From the NCBI GenBank assembly GCA_001662655.1, contig KV460210.1: a stretch of 64,000 nucleotides of DNA, one strand, 5' to 3'. Source of the stretch: Pseudogymnoascus verrucosus (Eukaryota). Under the pieces are notes generated by a model. It did not search any database, was not told where the DNA came from, and saw only the letters and a program-made list of their open reading frames with translations. This document shows positions 4,327-14,617 of this stretch, piece by piece. The position numbers and the translations under genes are program-made. Positions within the stretch are counted from its first letter, which is position 1; the number at the start of each line of letters is the position of its first letter.

Positions 4327-5668
4327 TCAGCTTTTGTTAGCCTTTCTAGCTGATGCAGACACATTAGTCGTATGCTTAGACGGCAGTTTAAACCCTTCTC
4401 CGTACCGCTCCATAAATTGCGAATCTCGCCCTTCTCTCTCCATATCGTCTGAGGCAGTTGCAGTCTCGCCTCCTAATCGCGGCTCCCTTTCATTAGTGGT
4501 ATTGATGGTGATGGTAACCATATCTCGCGATATCTGTCGGACAGTCTCGTTGTCAAGATAGCCACCTATTTGCCTCGACCTCCACCCAACCGCCCGATTT
4601 GTACCATGAAGAGTCTTTCCATTAGCTGAAACCATGACTTGCACCGCATCGCCCGTTGCATGATTCTCAATGATACTTATATTTTGCTCTAAATGGTTGC
4701 CTGCCGTGGATAGTATATCCATAGACTTCCGCGTTGACTGCCACTCTTCCCGCAACCTAGTAATGTCGGCTGCATTCTCTTGAGAGAAGGTGGCAGGCTC
4801 CAGCTTGTTCATTAGCCTATCAAAGAGCTGCTTCTCGTGGCTGGCCAACTGTTGGGCCATTCGAGCAAGACTGCCCTTGCACTCCTTTAGGCCATCGTTG
4901 GTGATTTTCTCAGGTATAGAGCTCGGGCCGTCAGCCGCATTAGCGCCAGCATTATGTAGAGTTGTGCGATGAATTTGGTCAATGTGTTCAGAGAGCTGGG
5001 AACAGATCTGTAGACATTTTTGTGTACTTAGGCGCTCGTCCTTTATCCGCTTCACTTCAGATGCGTTTAGTTCTGATCCAGCTACATTTTGACTAAGTAT
5101 ACGCTCAAGCTTCTCGTCCATTCTCTCAAGGTGATCCTCAAGGCCAGCTCTAGCGGTATCAAGGAGATCGTTATAGCTCTCAACGCTTTCAGCTGTAAGG
5201 GCAGACAGTCGACTGTGGAATTTTAAGGTCAGCGACTACTATAATGCACCAAGCGGCATCATCAGATACTTACAGATTTGCATCAGAGAGAGCAATAGTT
5301 ATAGTCATCTTGTAGCCGGATAGAACTCGTCTAAAGCTGTCAATGTCGTCCCCCATATACCTCAACCTAGCCCAATCTCGGAAGCTCGTACGGCTGCCGC
5401 TCGACCGCTGAGAACATTTGTGTATTTCTTGCTCGAACTCTTCGCAGGCCTTGCCGCATCGCCGAAGAGGAACCTCGAGAGCAGTAAGATCTAGGTCAGT
5501 AGAGCTTATCGTCTCCGTAAGTGAGCCTAGCACTCCACTTAATGCGCTGGTCTCTCTTGCGAAATCCCGTACGCGCTCTTGGTGAGAATTAAAGCTGTCA
5601 ACTGTCTTGTAGAGCGCGACGCTTGCCTGGAGGGCGAACGTGGCCAGATCTACTAACCCAGAGGCCAT
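4327..5668 (-). CDS. HeLo-like/PigL-N (fungal STAND N-terminal) domain protein, 2 exons
   Basis: Hydrophobic N-terminal helix MASGLVDLATFALQASVALY, then L..PL.RC..AC.EF..SFRDWARLRYMG.DI..F...L.GYK.TI.IAL typical of Helo_like_N; intron 5273-5213 (GTAAGT..CTGAC..CAG) joins it in frame to ORF 4327-5121. Confidence 0.75.
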
Positions 5669-6209
5669 TGTAAAACAAAGGCTACTCTAATGCAACAAAG
5701 TAAAGTTAGGACACAACACTTTTGCGATACAGACCTCAGGATTAAGTAGGATGATATTGTTGTCGTGGTTCTACAAAGCGTTCATGTTTTCATGTAGTGC
5801 TTTGCGCTACAACTAGACGGAGCGGGGTGTGATATTCCTTGGCGATTCTCTTGGGCGGGGTCACGTTGGACCGAGGAGACACAAGTTGTGGAGGTCAGAA
5901 AGCGGCGGAATGCCTGTGCACGAGCGTTGCCTAATTAGGTAGGCACTAAGCTTAGGCGGGTCAAACACCACAATCTAGATTATAAGTTTATATAAGGTTG
6001 TGGTGTTGGAGCGGCCGTTTTCGGCTGGTGTTAGTTGCTGCTTTACGCAGCCCTGAACACCAACATCTCATCACGTGCCTAGCTTGTGGTAAGTACCTTC
6101 ACATAGTAATTTGTATATAAAGGTACATAAATATGCCATTATCCGAAATTATCACCTCACCCCCACCCTCACTCCCACGCTCGCTTTCGGGGGCTTCTGG
6201 GTCTGGAAT

Positions 6210-6325
6210 CAGCAAGGAGGACACAGGCGGTGGCTATGGCAAGGTGTCTACCAGGGCATGGATCTGGCAAGAACGCCTCCTTGCTGAAAGAACGATATTC
6301 TTCACCCCTTCTGCCCTAAAATTCG
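6210..6325 (+). pseudogene. HET-domain (PF06985-like) gene fragment
   Basis: GKVSTRAWIWQERLLAERTIFFTPSALKF matches the L.TRAW..QERLL..R.L.F block of fungal HET-domain proteins; truncated by the transposon relic that follows. Confidence 0.6.
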
Positions 6326-6835
6326 CAGCTCAAACTCCAGAGGAATTGGGAGGCCAGCTTTGCGGAGCTGGGCCAGTGCCTTCTTCCGGAGGCGCTCTTC
6401 CTTCCGGGCCTCAACTCCAGCTCTACGGAGCTGCCTCTGGGCCCGGTTTGCAGCCTGGCGGGCTACCCGAGCTTCTTTGGCTCGGAGCTTCCGGGCCTGA
6501 AGCTCGTAAGCGTGGGTAGCTGTAAACTCACCTCCAACCTGAAGTCGGTCCCGGCTCCGGCTTGCCCGCTTCTTCGAGTCCTCCACCTGCCTCCGAACAG
6601 CCCGTAGGTCTAGCTCTTGGAGCTGACCTGCCACTACTACGTCTTCTGTGCTGGCAAGCCAATTCTGGTAGCTCTCCTTCGAGGGGCTGCTAAAGCCTCT
6701 ATAACCCAGTGTTTCCAGTGCTGTAGCCCCTCTTCTACCCACTGAAGAGTGGAGGGTTTAGGTGTAGAAACCTAGATTGGCAGTGCAGGTGTAGGCTCTG
6801 TAGTAGGCAGGATGTAATTCAGCGCTAAATTCTAG
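6326..6835 (-). mobile_element. Degenerate pogo/Fot1-like DNA transposase C-terminal fragment
   Basis: KKRASRSRDRLQVGGEFTA..RRAGVEARKEERLRKK..GLPIP resembles the basic helical tail of fungal pogo transposases; no DDE core or intact start. Confidence 0.5.
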
Positions 6836-7346
6836 AATGTTCTACACTGTAAGGCCAATCTCAACCCCAGTCAGAAGTTCATCCTTTTGTACTACAGTTT
6901 TATTTAATTACGCCAATCGTTGCGATGCAAAGCTCTCCAGTCATGATACTTTTCTTAGTCGCCCATCTCATTGCTCCCAAGTGTGGTCGCAACCCAGAGC
7001 GTCGCTTTGCGCATTGATCGGCAATGGAGTGATCAACCTGCATAGACCTGGCAGGACATGACTTGAACACGCGCAGGAAAACCTAGTAAGTACTTAGGCA
7101 ACCTTTATTGTCAATAGGTTCCCAGGCGACACCGTGAGGAAGAGAGCAGGGAAGAATCCTTACCGTAGCCGGACTTCAGCCGCAGCCTTATTACATTAGG
7201 CGGATGCAACTGTACGTTACGGGCGAATAAGAAATACCCCTCACTATTAACGACGAGATGGTGCTGGCACCAACTTACGAGAGGAAGTGCAATATAGGCT
7301 CTCGCTGGCGCCTTCCCCACCTTTGTAGCTTCCACGGTCCATCGCG

Positions 7347-10300
7347 ATGTCATATCCCAAACAACCAGGCAGGTCTAGCAAGCAACTAGGAAACATTTAT
7401 ACGAACGAAAACGCAATAGTCCACGTTGGGGATATACACCATATCGGTAAGCCCTTTTAGATATCAAAGAGGAAAACCACTGACACACGATAGGCCGAGA
7501 GGATCCCCTCGACCTCCTCCCATTTGCAACAAATGCACCGTTTAACTCCTACGACGGCCAACACGAACCCACCTGCCTTCCCGACACTCGCGTTGACCTT
7601 CTACAACAAATATATGATTGGGCGGATAGACAAGATGAGCGATGTATCTTCTGGCTAAATGGCTTAGCTGGCACAGGAAAATCAACAGTTGCGCGCACTG
7701 TCGCCCGCAGATTTTATGAGCAGAAGTGCCTTGGAGCCAGCTTCTTCTTCTCAATAGGTGGTGGAGATGTGAGCCATGCTGGCAAGTTCTTTACCAGTCT
7801 TGCTGTGCAGCTCGCGTATGCTGTACCATCTCTTCGAGAACATATCTCCGATGCTGTTTCTAAGTGCAAAGATATTGCGAACCAGTCCCTCCACGACCAG
7901 TGGCGCCAACTTGTCCTCCACCCATTATCAAAGCTGGACGACAACAGTCGCCAATGCTCATATATCTTGATAGTTGATGCGCTTGATGAGTGTAAGGACG
8001 ATAATAATATACGGATTATTCTGCAGCTCTTAGGTGAGGCTCGGTTGTTAAAGACAGTACGGCTTCGGGTCTTTTTAACAAGCAGACCTGAAATTCCTAT
8101 CCGATACGGTATGCACTATATCCCGCAGGCTGAACATCAGGACTTTGTTCTTCATAGTTTATCTCCATCGACTGTCGATCATGATATTTCAATATTCTTA
8201 GAATATAATCTTGCAGTGATCAGGCGGGAATGGGACCTTGGGCCTGGCTGGCCTGGTAATAAGGTTCTCGAACAGCTAGTTCTAAATGCTAGTGGCCTCT
8301 TCATTTGGGCGGCAACAGTATGTCGATTCATTAGTGAAGGAAAACAATTTGCAGCCAAGAGATTGGATGCTGTCCTTAAAGGCAGTAGCGACGCTGTTAC
8401 TGCACCAGAAAAGCACCTTAACAAGATATACGCTACAGTCCTTGGGCACGCTATTACAACTGAAGGCGCAGCAGAGAGGGAAGAGCTTGTTCACATGCTG
8501 AGACACATTCTTGGAAGTATAGTGGTCTTGTTCTCACCACTTTCTGCCTACTCTTTAAGCAGGCTTCTCCAGGTTAATATACGGCATGTTACCCGGGCAC
8601 TGGAGGGTCTTCATGCTATCTTAGATGTCCCAGAGGATCAAACGCACCCGCTCCGTCTCCATCATCCTTCATTTCGCGACTTCCTCCTTAATAAAGATCG
8701 ATGTGGCGATTTCTGGGTAGATGAAAGGCAGTCACATCAGATATTAGCCGATTATTGTATCCGTCTCATGGCTATATCTCTTAAGAAAGATGTTTCCAGT
8801 CAAGTAGTCCCTGGCACATATGTGGCTAACGTGGAGATTAGTCAAGTAGAGCAATTTCTTCCTCCAGAGGAGAATTACGCATGTCTGTACTGGATCGGGC
8901 ATCTTCAGAGGAGTAATACTCAGTTTTACGACAATGACCAAGTCCACATGTTCCTCCAGCTACATCTCCTTCACTGGCTTGAGGCACTTAGCTGGATGGG
9001 AAAGACTTCAGAAGGGATACTTGCAATATTATCCTTAGAGGCACTTGTTCCGGTAAGCCTTCGCTATAATATACTATAGAACCTTGACTTATCTATATCA
9101 AGGCTGGACAATGTCCCAATCTATACGCGTTTGTCCATGATGCAAAGCGATTTGCCCTGTACAACCGGTCAGTCTTCGAGCAGGCTCCCCTCGAGATATA
9201 TTCTAGTGCACTCTTATCCGCACCAACAAGGAGCATAGTGAGAAGACTGTTTAGGGACCAAGTACCCTACTGGATTCAGACATCGCCTAAAGTCCCAGAG
9301 GATTGGAGTTCCCTGCTACAAACGCTAAAAGGTCATTCGGATATTGTTAGCGCTGTTTCCTTCTCGCCAGACAGCAAGATGCTAGCATCGTCATCAAGGG
9401 ACAAGACTGCTCGGTTATGGGATGCAATCACAGGCGCTCTTCTGCAGACGCTAGAGGGCCATTCAAGCTTCGTTAATGCTGTTACCTTTTCACCTGACAG
9501 TAGACAGTTGGCGTCAGCATCAAGCGACAAGACTGTTTGTTTATGGGACGTAGTTACAGGGGCAGTATTACATACTCTCAAGGGCCATTCGAATGATGTA
9601 ACTGCTGTTGCCTTTTCGCCTGACAGTAGACAGCTGGCGTCAGCATCAACAGATGAAACAGTCAAGCTTTGGGATGCAGCTACAGGCGCTCCTCTGCAGA
9701 CGTTAGAGGGCCATTCAAGCTTCGTTAATGCTGTTGCCTTTTCACCTGACAGTAGACAGTTGGCGTCAGCATCAACAGATAAAACAGTCAAGCTTTGGGA
9801 TGCAGCTACAGGCGCTCTTCTACAGACGTTAGAGGGCCATTCAAGCTTCGTCAATGCTGTTGCCTTTTCACCTGATAGTAGACAGTTGGCGTCAGCATCA
9901 GCGGATAAAACAGTCAAGCTTTGGGACATAACTGTAGGTACAGTTTCGCAGATGCTGAAGGGCCATTTGAACGACGTAACTGCTGTTGCCTTTTCGCCTG
10001 ACGGTGGACAGCTGGCATCAGCATCGAAAGATAAGACAATAAATTTATGGGATCCATTGATGAAATCAGTGGCGCAGACACAAGAGGGAGCTTATAAGTC
10101 CTCGTTTCTTCAAGCCCAGAGATCAACTGACGAGATATCTTCAAACTTGGAGCGCGCCGACGCTAAGGAGAGTATCGAGCCCCAGATTAGAGTTCATGGC
10201 ACATTTTCAGATTCCGGATTTGCCTCGATGTCATCTTTAGCCGCTCCTAGTATAAGTAATCGTGTTGGCCAAACCCCAATTCAAGATAAACACAATATTG

Positions 10301-12350
10301 ACCAATTGCCAACAACTCCTAGTGATCAAGGGGACAACCAAAGCCCAGAGAATGAGCATAAACCAGGAGCTAGGACTACAGAAGCTGACAATGATGATTT
10401 GCAATCTGTCATTTCTGATAGGGACGAAATCTCCTCGCAAATTTCAACACAAAAAGCACAACAAGAGCTGCTTGCTGAAAAACACTTGGCTACTTTGTTA
10501 GGACAAAATGAAGATCTAAAGCCATTTTATGAAATTGCTTTAGGGCAAATGGAAAAGGAGCGCTTTGTTAACAATTTTCGAAGAATATTAAAGCGGTATT
10601 ATCTCGACCTTTTTCAGTCAGCAAATACAAATCTTGAGCGAGCGACAGTTCAAATATTAAGGAGCAGGTCCACGCGAGTCGGAATAGCGCAAGGTGTTGT
10701 GGATCGACTGACTCCCGAAAGTAATGAGGCTTATACTCAGCTTTTAGCTGATACACAAGACATCGAAGACAAGATTTCCGATTTAGAAAGTTGGATAGCT
10801 AGCAATCCTGGTTTAGTACCACCGCTAGAGCCTCAGGATAGTGGAGATGTAGTAGAAGGACAAGTGGACGACTTAGACAATATTGCCTCTGACAGTGATC
10901 AGGAAGGAGAGGAACAAGTCGTTACAAGTTATCCTTTACCAAATGTCGCGGGGATGGAGAGCTTTCTATTCCAAGGCAACGCATTTCGTTCACTTATAAC
11001 AAACACTTGCCTCTTTCTGCTCCCTGCGTCTCTCATTTCTCTTTCTCGAGTTCTTATGACGATTCCTTATAACAGGATATATTTCTCCTCCGAAGACAAT
11101 CTCTCAATCCTCAATCGAGTTCAAGGATTTGTAGAGGATCACACAGAAGAAAATTGGAATTGGTGGCCACTGCAGCCACGAATGCGGCCGTTAGGAAAAG
11201 ATCAAACGCGAGTATATTGGAAATGCGTAAGAACCTCTAGATAGAGTATTGTGTGGAATTATCTAACAAGATGTAGCACTGCGGCAGAACTCAGTGGGCA
11301 GAGATTTCACTATCTCAAGCAAACTCGTATCGATTAATATTACAAGAAAATAGACCAGTCTTGCAGAACAATCATCTCTGCAGAATCAAGCAGAAAAATT
11401 CGTGGCGCGCTACTTTGGGGAAGATGACCACTAAGACAGTTGGCACTGTCTCTACAAGAACCCAGCCGCTTACGACGCCAGGAATTACTCAACCACTCAC
11501 CCCGACCCCGCAAAGTATACAGCTCAAACCAAGCAGCGGTAGGGTACGCCAGGCTACTAATATCCTCCACAATCCTGCTGAACCTACTACAATTAATCGG
11601 AGTGAAGTTCGGGTTGGAATTAGTGAACTATCAGGAGGCCCATATGTTCTTTTTGGAGTCAAGGGTCCACGACGTACGTTGGAGCTAGAACAAATAGAAG
11701 TCAATGAAAATTCCGACGACAATACTTTTTTCCAAAGTCTGACGCAGGCTTATAGAAAACACCGAGGTTTTTGGCGGTATTGGTTCTCGATCTGGCAACT
11801 TACTCACTGCGATTTTGTAAAGGTTTGTGTAAATCCTTTATATTATATATTGACTGACAATGTCCAGTTTCTAAAGCTTAGAGCAAATCGTATAATTTTT
11901 CATAGCAAGAGTCTTCCAGACGATATAATATACGAATATCGACCTCGTCCGCCCACAGCCGAAAACCCGCCTATCCTCCCACACGAATTTGAGCTAGCTT
12001 TCTCAGCATGCTCTTCTAATTGCCTGCTCTCCACCTTGCACGATTGTGTAGATCCACCCATTGGGAAGTTTGCGGTAGAGCGGATTCCGAAACGGAAAAG
12101 CATGATCCACTTCTCTACTAATAATTTGGAATTTGCGTGGGGTATCCAAGCACAACACGCCATCTCAGCCCTCAGGATGGTAGTATACCATCTCCTTATC
12201 TTCGCTAGCACATTTGGATTTTGGGCGTGGTGGTTGGTATTCCATCCAAATGATTTGCAGAATGCGGCCGTGCCGCTCACCACAATTGTCGTGTTGCTTT
12301 CACTGTTTTGGGGCGCAGCAGGTGTTTTGAAATTTAGGAGGCAGGATTAG
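7347..12350 (+). CDS. Fungal NLR: N-terminal amyloid motif - NACHT - 6x WD40 - long C-terminal domain with terminal hydrophobic segments (~1600 aa, 5 exons)
   Basis: Exons 7347-7446, 7494-9052, 9103-11226, 11277-11822, 11868-12350 splice in frame at GT..AG introns. C.PDTRV..L..I..W, P-loop WLNGLAGTGKST, Walker B ILIVDALDEC, FLTSRPE, ASGLFIWA, LHHPSFRDFL; HET-E/NWD-type WD repeats. Confidence 0.88.
9316..10071 (+). repeat. Six tandem 126-bp high-identity WD40 repeats
   Basis: Unit LQTLEGHSSFVNAVAFSPDSRQLASASTDKTVKLWDAATGAL; repeats 4 and 5 are near-identical at the DNA level. Confidence 0.95.
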
Positions 12351-13200: not shown

Positions 13201-14617
13201 TCCATGTATCCAACGTGATTCTTCTCCTGGGAGCCTAATGCTCCTGGGAAAACCCTTCTCCGGGGAGAATCATCCTAGGAGCTTACTAGTCCTAGGACAG
13301 CCCTCCCAGGAGCCTCCTGGTCCTAGGAGAAAACTCCTAAGTTGGTGTCCCGTAACCTGCACCTCCGACACCACGATCTGGATTACCCTATCAATCATCA
13401 TGTTGGTGCAGGGGTTGCGGAAACCCGCTGTAACAAAGTCGCCCTGCGTTTCACGTTGTAGTGGTGGAGAATAATATGATCCATCGGATAAGCCAAGCTA
13501 GCTAGGCTGCGAGGACCTGAGAGTAATTATTTTTCTTGCCAAGTCGGAAGACAACTCCCGCTCTGATCGCCAATAACCATTTCATACCGTTACTGCTCCT
13601 GAAATGGCCCTGTGCTGGCAGCATGTAATGATGTACGGTTACGCTCGCGCTACACCTCACTGAGCCAAAAAGACTACAATATTCCAGCTCGGCTGGAATA
13701 CGCGTAACACGCTATATATACTGTAACGGTCGCACGCCGGCACCCCGTTACACAGCACTCGCGGCAGCTAGCCTCTTTTCTTTCAAAAGAAGGAATATTT
13801 CTGAACTATGCCTACTGTGAAGACAATTGCTTTAAAAGCATCGAGTAACTAGCAGTGGCTAGATAGAACAACATTTAAAGTCAGACGACTCTGTTAGCAA
13901 TAACTGTCTACTCTCAGTATCTACCTGTCTACAATCCTAGGGGTGTTCCTGTATCACCGCCTTGAAATGAAGGTGAAGCGCAGCCTACAACGCATGGATG
14001 GTTGCAGCCCCGATAGCCTTCGAGAGGGACCTCTACTTTCGATCTCCGGGATGCGAGTACAGGCCCCTAACAAGCTAGGCGGGCAAACAGAAATCGGCCC
14101 TTCTCTCGAAGATCAGCCTCGACGGAGGCAGGCGTCGCTGCTCTCAGTGCCTATAACTCATAATGTTGCAAAAGGTAATGTAGGGCAGTCTCGCAAAGGC
14201 CAGCGCCATTCCACCGCGAGATAGTCGGGGAGGAAGCTGCCCTTGCATAGAAGTTGAAGGCGGCGGCAGGCCTGTCCATGCGCGTTGCTCAATTAGGCGG
14301 GCGCTAAACCCGAAGCTCGAACACCACGATCTAGATTATAAAATATAATAAGTTAATTAAAAATAGTTTTAATACTCACACCACTTGAAGTTAGAAAAGC
14401 TCATATTTTATCTAAAATTTAATACTACGGATATAAGCTATTAGAATTTATTTCTTCGGTTCTATTTATAAGAAACTGGATTGCTGATTGTGGCCCTGAG
14501 ACTGTGCGCCTTGGCTTAATAATAGTTACTGTGAACACCGATGTTACCCGCAATCTACCTTCCGGCTTTTGGGCGGCACAAATGCTTTAGGCATTTTATT
14601 ATGTACTTATAATTTAT

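Follow-up and report, generated by a model that had tools for sequence, protein, structure and literature searches.

A NACHT-WD40 receptor with an amyloid-signalling motif and a head-to-head long HeLo-like gene in Pseudogymnoascus verrucosus: probably neighbours rather than partners

A stretch of 64,000 nucleotides (nt) of Pseudogymnoascus verrucosus (assembly GCA_001662655.1, contig KV460210.1), hereafter the window, carries a NOD-like receptor (NLR) gene and, head to head with it and 1678 bases apart, a gene for a long HeLo-like protein. Based on a likeness to het-S/nwd2 of Podospora anserina, an earlier note proposed that the two form an amyloid-signalling and cell-death pair. The two genes are probably separate pieces of NLR and cell-death machinery that adjoin in an accessory patch scarred by transposons. 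The receptor would be NWD2-like and orphaned, and the long HeLo-like gene beside it unrelated. The N-terminal motif of the receptor (r0) and the two repeats of the neighbour (R1 and R2), all compared as amyloid motifs related to HET-s (HRAMs), are assigned to different classes, and therefore the NLR and its neighbour are probably not partners. The linkage was not conserved among the loci reached. The region is fungal; among named organisms, the nearest relatives of the two proteins are Leotiomycetes, and for the minus-strand gene they are Pseudogymnoascus. The features of the two genes are as follows.

7347..7446, plus strand: NLR exon 1, ATG at 7347, 33 codons and one base (open reading frame, ORF, and translation)
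7374..7436, plus strand: r0 amyloid-signalling motif, residues 10-30, G19-D20, HRAM3-type family (HRAM rules and scores)
7494..9052, plus strand: NLR exon 2, NACHT (NPHP3_N match 7607-8086) and helical domains (Pfam)
9103..11226, plus strand: NLR exon 3, six WD40 repeats, then start of the tail module (Pfam, 126-nt period)
11277..11822 and 11868..12350, plus strand: NLR exons 4 and 5, rest of the tail of about 730 residues (ORF and translation)
5274..5668, minus strand: long HeLo-like gene exon 1, ATG at 5668 (ORF and translation)
5213..5273, minus strand: intron of the HeLo-like gene, GT..AG, 61 nt (spliced in public contigs)
4327..5212, minus strand: long HeLo-like gene exon 2, to the stop (ORF and translation)
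4672..5160, minus strand: two copies of a helical unit, residues about 150-225 and 240-312 (hhalign and model helices)
4624..4686, minus strand: repeat R1, residues 308-328, Q16-type, lacking G19 (model strands 310-318 and 322-327)
4555..4617, minus strand: repeat R2, residues 331-351, Q16 and G19 (model strands 332-340 and 345-350)
4330..4554, minus strand: C-terminal tail of 75 residues, comprising a helix, a linker modelled with low confidence and a Y-G-x-G motif that is conserved

The NLR consists of 1603 residues encoded by five exons (intron 1, 7447-7493); its leader of 33 residues is followed by NACHT, then by six WD40 repeats and the tail. NPHP3_N and NACHT were detected with E-values of 4e-29 and 6e-10, respectively, and the six WD40 stretches follow the 126-nt period at about 9316-10030; by Pfam and translation, the protein carries sensor repeats and lacks an effector domain at its N-terminus. 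Pfam, which holds no model for r0 or for the motif of the neighbour, gave no match on exon 1. The HRAM rules of PMC4518210 (hydrophobic residue or T at positions 5, 8, 10, 16 and 18, and G at 19) are satisfied by residues 10-30 with L5, I8, T10, V16, V18, G19 and D20. A public gene model of equal length (P0415) aligns gap-free with the NLR, being possibly from the same assembly and not independent, and the next-best relative among proteins of 931-2655 residues stands at 71%. In public runs, presumably of RNA, the NLR was covered by diverged contigs only.

The neighbour is a protein of 426 residues (exons 5668-5274 and 5212-4327) with many relatives at 87-99%. The scan for a HeLo-type domain suggested in the earlier note found PigL_N (PF17111) at residues 1-202 with an E-value of 8e-78. 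At the joint 5212/5274, the intron was absent from contigs in both of two runs (two samples of one study, guessed to be RNA). PigL_N is followed by the duplicated helical unit (hhalign probability 97.5, E 2.7e-11), a beta-region at residues 308-351 and the 75-residue tail, which includes a helix. AlphaFold2 modelled the protein with a mean predicted local distance difference test (pLDDT) of 82.7 from a 132-row alignment, the beta-region being a long-short strand pair that occurs twice, and the motif modelled alone gave a like fold (pLDDT 84.9). The two repeats are linked by two residues; position 19 of R1 is V, and core positions 5, 8 and 18 of R2 are occupied by G, R and G. Foldseek and VIA-wide searches with the full-length model returned generic coiled-coil or helical matches only.

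The similarity of r0 to other motifs was measured by BLOSUM62 score, with z taken from 2000 shuffles. Against 12 G19-D/N r0 motifs of related NLRs, z was 5.8 (0/2000 shuffles), and it was 7.0 against r0 of a paralogous NLR on contig C47, 4.6 against four HeLo repeats of the own genome, and 2.5-3.7 against HRAM2 sets. For the neighbour, z was 0.4 with R1 (689/2000) and -0.9 with R2 (1707/2000), and 28 R1/R2 of its family gave 1.0 and -0.4, whereas two class-matched pairs of the same genome, examined as positive controls, gave 4.8 and 4.3. In a second scoring by profiles, the r0 exon reached +25.9 bits on H3-type r0 and -14 to -18 on four long-family repeat profiles; r0 is without Q16. By these scores, r0 is a member of the G19-D/N r0 family, here called HRAM3-type by the H-at-3 rule of partner repeats (PMC4518210), and R1/R2 belong to another class. 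A divergent HeLo-like gene beside an amyloid-motif NLR, as the earlier note described, is present, and the functional pairing built upon it was not borne out. PMC4518210 reports that r0 and its cognate r1/r2 as a rule fall into one cluster. No cross-seeding is reported between HET-s and HELLF, which are of different HRAM classes (bioRxiv 2020.07.06.188508; PMC7885112).

The family of r0 was recognised also from its carriers. Among 120 listed NACHT homologues, 41 (the self record included) have a short leader by pattern, and 14 of these 41 have, by eye, the r0 leader type of the window NLR. One of these 14 is P0151 (KFZ24428.1), and the PMC4518210 supplement gives its r0 in the entry of HeLo protein KFZ24429, in which H occupies position 3 of both repeats. 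The only other match of exon 1 in the own genome was the first exon of the C47 NLR (52%, E 0.00125), with which the window NLR is collinear from the ATG onward (67.7% DNA identity, 2643 columns). Within its family r0 is diverged, with 10 of 21 residues identical to P0123 (by eye) and K at position 3. A quick NACHT tree of 42 rows placed the window NLR without starred support, the N-terminal types being scattered, and searches of PDB sequences with r0 and with the effector-motif alignment retrieved no HRAM entry.

A receptor for the neighbour was sought elsewhere in the genome, which holds 68+8 NLR-domain matches in 30.2 Mb, four of them with r0. The upstream regions of 71 NLR loci contained no N-terminus that matched type-A repeats, the subtype of the window gene (see below), above the antisense background. 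The best match to type-B repeats (L166, 9.1 bits) was rejected, as it lies inside a long helical N-terminal domain.

Linkage was examined in 30 metagenomic related loci, mostly short contigs, by a hidden Markov model of NACHT, by BLAST with 15 NLR ORFs of the own genome, and by Pfam; the Pfam step covered 70 of 130 ORFs of at least 170 residues, with family exons and most overlapping opposite-frame ORFs excluded. NACHT was found in one of the 30 loci (L052), about 7 kb downstream and bearing its own PigL_N domain. An NLR was located upstream in none of the 11 informative loci, those with at least 2 kb of upstream sequence, two of which are apparently one locus, and within about 10 kb on each side of the two paralogues of the own genome (contigs C8 and C32) there was likewise none. 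In the fused gene models of two near-orthologues, P0250 and P0256, neighbours other than an NLR were found, by motif presumably a GPN-type GTPase in P0250 and a phosphotransferase-like ORF in P0256. In the merged model P0261, a type-B paralogue, the orthologue of the C8 gene, lies directly downstream of the orthologue of the window gene, both pairings having a support of 100 in the Shimodaira-Hasegawa-like approximate likelihood ratio test (SH-aLRT). The co-occurrence of the pair in other genomes, suggested as a check in the earlier note, was not seen in these loci and gene models. In strains with a different gene next to it, the effector motif is unchanged or almost unchanged and thus shows no co-evolution with r0.

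Inspection of the 1.7-kb spacer between the two genes gave the following features.

5889..6086: dispersed short repeat containing an imperfect palindrome, with many genome copies (genome search)
6089..6803, minus strand: remnant of a DDE transposase (6089-6185 and 6330-6803), 66-83% identical at the DNA level to transposase-like ORFs of four further loci
6214..6325, plus strand: captured 112-bp piece within the transposase remnant, 93% identical to a 544-codon ORF on contig C13

Judged from its sequence, the spacer is transposon debris. The transposase remnant is presumably pogo/Fot1-like, and the ORF on C13 is, from its motif, taken to be a HET-domain-like gene. A search by tblastx found no remnant of a cognate HeLo gene in the window, and the spacer holds nothing of het-S beyond a 23-bp match. 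The dispersed palindromic repeat, with a CTAG-containing end, flanks both genes (window:4146-4193, 5961-6026, 13354-13385 and 14307-14352), and these copies may mark the termini of a mobile element by which the block was transferred. The locus is located in a lower-GC patch of about 3.4-16.5 kb (GC mostly 41-50%, and 53% over the transposase remnant), which has an NADH:flavin oxidoreductase gene on one side and core metabolic genes on the other; a protein-kinase-like gene or fragment (window:15296-16200) lies at its right edge.

The genome contains other pairs of NLR and HeLo genes. Opposite the C47 paralogue of the window NLR stands a HeLo gene that is het-S-like and has repeats of H3 type (L034:1750-6490). 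This gene and its second copy on contig C9 (L037), which has no NLR, are each broken by several stops or frameshifts; indices of repeat-induced point mutation (RIP) did not mark out the broken genes, and RIP is not claimed. Two further pairs, apparently intact, are the positive controls above. On C6 (L032:5299-10000), a short HeLo-like protein with HRAM2 accompanies a NACHT-WD40 NLR, the leader of which is by profiles of the same HRAM2 type, and on C47 (L035:4748-9099), a HeLo protein with G19-type repeats accompanies an NB-ARC-like NLR. The one intact G19-type HeLo gene is located at C47:78152.

The receptor most likely works as NWD2 does. Following the model of NWD2 and HET-S, binding of a ligand at the WD40 repeats would lead to oligomerisation of NACHT and to stacking of r0 into a beta-solenoid seed. 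The target of this seed is most likely a HeLo protein that is short, HET-S-like and equipped with H3-type repeats, as for the C47 paralogue, rather than the neighbour. Because both H3-type het-S-like genes are broken here, the receptor may be an orphan, may act in trans on the intact C47:78152 product, or may use its own C-terminal tail. Loss of one partner is documented for het-s/nwd2 in the available part of PMC3321046. The long HeLo-like protein combines an N-terminal bundle of membrane-targeting type, the duplicated helical unit, an internal two-rung Q16-type motif derived from HRAM, and the tail. Most likely it is an effector for which stacking of this motif in register serves as the switch, in a pathway without an adjacent NLR, its likeliest partners being the paralogous subtypes.

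The window allele of this protein lacks six N-terminal residues that were found in all 25 of 25 related loci (start region window:5651-5668) and carries Asp in helix 1. In the accessible text of PMC4518210 and PMC7885112, the corresponding helix is the membrane-inserting part of HET-S. For this reason, the window allele may be non-toxic. Shortened and full-length start alleles both occur among close relatives (P0255-type versus P0251-type).

The family of long HeLo-like proteins was characterised with a 28-row profile of the motif, which retrieved 849 cluster representatives (50% identity) at E<=0.001 and 406 at 1e-10. Named members belong to several classes of Pezizomycotina, namely Sordariomycetes, Eurotiomycetes, Dothideomycetes, Leotiomycetes and Orbiliomycetes. 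An alignment of 185 non-redundant sequences has two Q columns at a distance of 23, each conserved at 95%, and within the scanned offsets of 17-29, identical pairs, opposite-charge pairs and mutual information (MI) with average product correction all peak at offset 23. At this offset, opposite-charge pairs amount to 2.09 versus 0.13 for like-charge pairs, and it includes seven of the top 25 MI pairs against 0.64 expected. At the family level R1 and R2 covary in register with a period of 23, at an effective depth of only about 15 and with much of the signal being the split between subtypes; the similarity of R1 to R2 appears only as this covariation and as the repeated secondary structure. Q16 is present in both repeats of 97% of type A and 91% of type B. 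Subtype B (68 sequences, including the C8 paralogue of this genome) follows the HRAM rules apart from G19 of R1, its charges at offset 23 being 3.81 opposite versus 0.0 like. Subtype A (110 sequences), to which the window gene belongs, keeps a Q/Q ladder in 106 and a G/G ladder in 104 of its 110 sequences. The genome holds one each of subtypes A, B and C on three contigs (that of the window, C8 with L027 and C32 with L030). At L059:5633-12834, four long HeLo-like genes stand in tandem, subtype A alternating with a B-like subtype.

In a blind Foldseek search with the motif model, the HET-s fibril 2RNM ranked first (E 1.2, root-mean-square deviation (rmsd) 8.2), and in a second blind structure search the HELLF fibril 6EKA was aligned over 46 of 53 residues (Z 2.4, rmsd 5.9), only two of 48,161 chains reaching Z>=2. 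Re-alignment gave no Z>=2. The modelled likeness to HRAM fibrils is thus suggestive and not significant. A search of the ESM Atlas with the motif returned PigL_N clusters only, below 0.9, and a three-copy complex model of effector(305-364) scored 0.05 with the alignment not used, carrying no weight either way. One match among 8000 candidates for longer fused proteins of the family is weak evidence. When all 155 rows of the supplementary table of PMC4518210 were compared, none was a member of the long family, and five Q16 rows resemble its repeats, by eye only. The long family and the short HRAM2 effector exon of C6 did not match significantly when compared by profile (E 0.21).

The NLR tail of about 730 residues (window:10051-12350) matches no Pfam family and ends in a hydrophobic segment (Kyte-Doolittle value of 1.97 at residue 1578); the ESM Atlas returned nothing for it. 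The same tail ends another r0-bearing NACHT-WD40 NLR, P0165 (1 of 119 other NLRs), and P0320, one among 150 listed representatives, fuses a long HeLo-like exon of type A to this tail module (E 3e-27). Homologues of the tail were absent from the 30 related loci and other fetched loci, and no second copy was found in the part of the own genome searched. From this distribution, the tail appears to be a mobile module that occurs on NLRs and on a long HeLo-like protein. Behind its first two-repeat motif, P0320 carries another, incomplete copy (residues 236-274).

Several observations weigh against two separate pieces that merely adjoin. The head-to-head layout is the same as that of three class-matched r0-NLR/HeLo pairs of this genome (two on C47 and one on C6), and by hand estimate with uniform placement, adjacency by chance would be about 0.1-0.2% for an r0-bearing NLR and about 5% for any of about 70 NLR loci, figures to be read with the facts that both gene kinds favour variable regions and that the window was chosen for this look. 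No orthologue of at least 90% with a long upstream flank was among the loci; r0 scores z 3.7 with HRAM2 repeats, so that the score splits G19-type motifs from the neighbour better than it splits HRAM classes; and a single pair has been tested experimentally for cross-class HRAM seeding. The fusion in P0320, one independent connection between the families of the two genes, points in the same direction. A cognate pair could have arisen by a switch of partner, in which r0, having lost het-S, seeds the Q16-type repeats of its neighbour across classes and so activates the HeLo-like domain. The shared layout would fit such a switch, as would the breakage of both H3-type het-S-like genes while r0 preserves an amyloid pattern and is diverged within its family, the relation of the neighbour's motif to HRAM, and the single joining of both families through the tail module. 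Yet r0 is not shifted toward the neighbour by either scoring, the effector motif stays the same where the neighbouring gene differs, the 11 informative loci show no linkage, and an allele without six N-terminal residues and with Asp in helix 1 fits an active killer poorly; on these sequence comparisons a cognate pair is unlikely. Alternatively, the locus could be a unit through the tail, if long HeLo-like proteins are the usual working partners of the tail module and if the NLR part was fused in front of a resident tail gene, which thereby came under control by ligand. P0320 and P0165 are what such a history would leave, although they are single cases, with no tail homologue in the related or other fetched loci and no further copy in the part of the genome searched, and this is considered very improbable.

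The neighbour could also stand outside prion signalling altogether, its beta-region being a small soluble beta-fold or oligomerisation element of a helical scaffold or membrane protein, with the NLR again an orphan. Type A gives reasons for this view: the core of R2 is broken, with hydrophobic fractions of 0.04, 0.06 and 0.05 at positions 5, 8 and 18, R1 has G19 in none, the charge signal is without a peak at offset 23, and R1 and R2 did not match significantly in profile comparison by hhalign (E 0.92). AlphaFold2, in addition, places the region confidently within a monomer (pLDDT 84-87), and the matches to the HET-s and HELLF structures are weak (rmsd 5.9-8.2). This reading is nevertheless unlikely, since type B conforms to the HRAM rules without any like-charge pair at offset 23, the Q/Q and G/G ladders persist in type A, and both solved HRAM fibrils head the two blind searches. 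A farther-reaching proposal is that the long HeLo-like proteins are an uncatalogued branch of HRAM effectors, in which the buried motif with its tight loop lets subtypes A, B and C cross-seed without an adjacent NLR and the window allele is a HET-s-like subtype A that propagates the prion without killing; this is held only as a tentative possibility. The reading of an orphaned receptor beside an unrelated long HeLo-like gene is the one preferred here.

The likeness to het-S/nwd2 stated in the earlier note holds in part. As in that HRAM1 system, a NACHT-WD40 NLR with a short N-terminal r0 of the pattern 5/8/10/16/18/19 stands beside a divergent neighbour that has a HeLo-related domain and a two-rung motif. 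The motif of the window neighbour, however, is internal (residues 308-351) and not C-terminal. The neighbour further differs in being a PigL_N protein of 426 residues with Q16-type repeats that mismatch r0, and the NLR in its extra tail of about 730 residues; the locus differs in its 1.7-kb transposon-filled spacer and its unconserved linkage. Instead of the het-S/nwd2-type effector end, with G19 in both repeats, a loop of 6-18 residues and a short C-terminus, the window effector has V19 in R1, a loop of two residues and a 75-residue tail. Pairs of the H3-type (KFZ24428/KFZ24429 and C47) represent the family of the receptor, as the first exon and NACHT of the window NLR are homologous to theirs; unlike in these pairs, the window holds no cognate HeLo gene, nor by tblastx any remnant of one, and r0 is diverged with K at position 3.

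The window effector also resembles HELLF/FNT1 (HeLo-like with HRAM5, PDB 6EKA) and short Q16 HeLo-like proteins, in having PigL_N at the N-terminus, Q in strand 3 of its two repeats and a helix after R2; a similar C-x-x-x-C helix precedes R1, by eye, in three of the five Q16 supplement rows, and the structural match to 6EKA is weak, as described above. It is about 150 residues longer than these proteins (duplicated helical unit and tail), with a loop of two residues instead of 6-18, R1 without G19, and G5, R8 and G18 in type-A R2; unlike HELLF/FNT1, it has no matching r0 in the adjacent NLR or upstream of the 71 NLR loci. The short Q16 class is HRAM4 in the labels of the 2017 review, and the 2015 text swaps the two labels. 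That a PigL_N neighbour might by its domain alone represent a new effector class, as the earlier note considered, is not supported, because neighbours of the HELLF/FNT1 type are already described in the available parts of PMC4518210 and bioRxiv 2020.07.06.188508, and HeLo-like proteins with HRAM beside an NLR in those of PMC4518210 and PMC5485727. By their accessible passages, the 2015 screen (PMC4518210) was limited to proteins of at most 310 residues and to the last 80 residues, and that of PMC9815663 to 200-400 residues and the last 100 residues, with C-terminal pieces of 10-150 residues; the long HeLo-like family lies outside these length limits. No description of the family appeared in the searched listings of openly available literature or in passages of PMC12261475; subscription journals lay outside this coverage, and the supplements of PMC9815663 may hold the motif.

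These observations altogether indicate that adjacency and the presence of r0 are insufficient for the recognition of an NLR/effector couple, and that the class match between r0 and the repeats can be scored. The more novel part of the locus is the family of long HeLo-like proteins, possibly working as pairs of paralogues, and the recurring NLR tail with its hydrophobic end is a second module that lacks an explanation. The natural full-length and shortened alleles offer a ready comparison of the het-S/het-s kind. If the motif is a functional HRAM-derived switch in the long family, the family would probe the beta-solenoid's tolerance for a two-residue loop and for loss of the third arch glycine, and fungal amyloid signalling would exceed the catalogued set and would be joined by effectors without a linked receptor.

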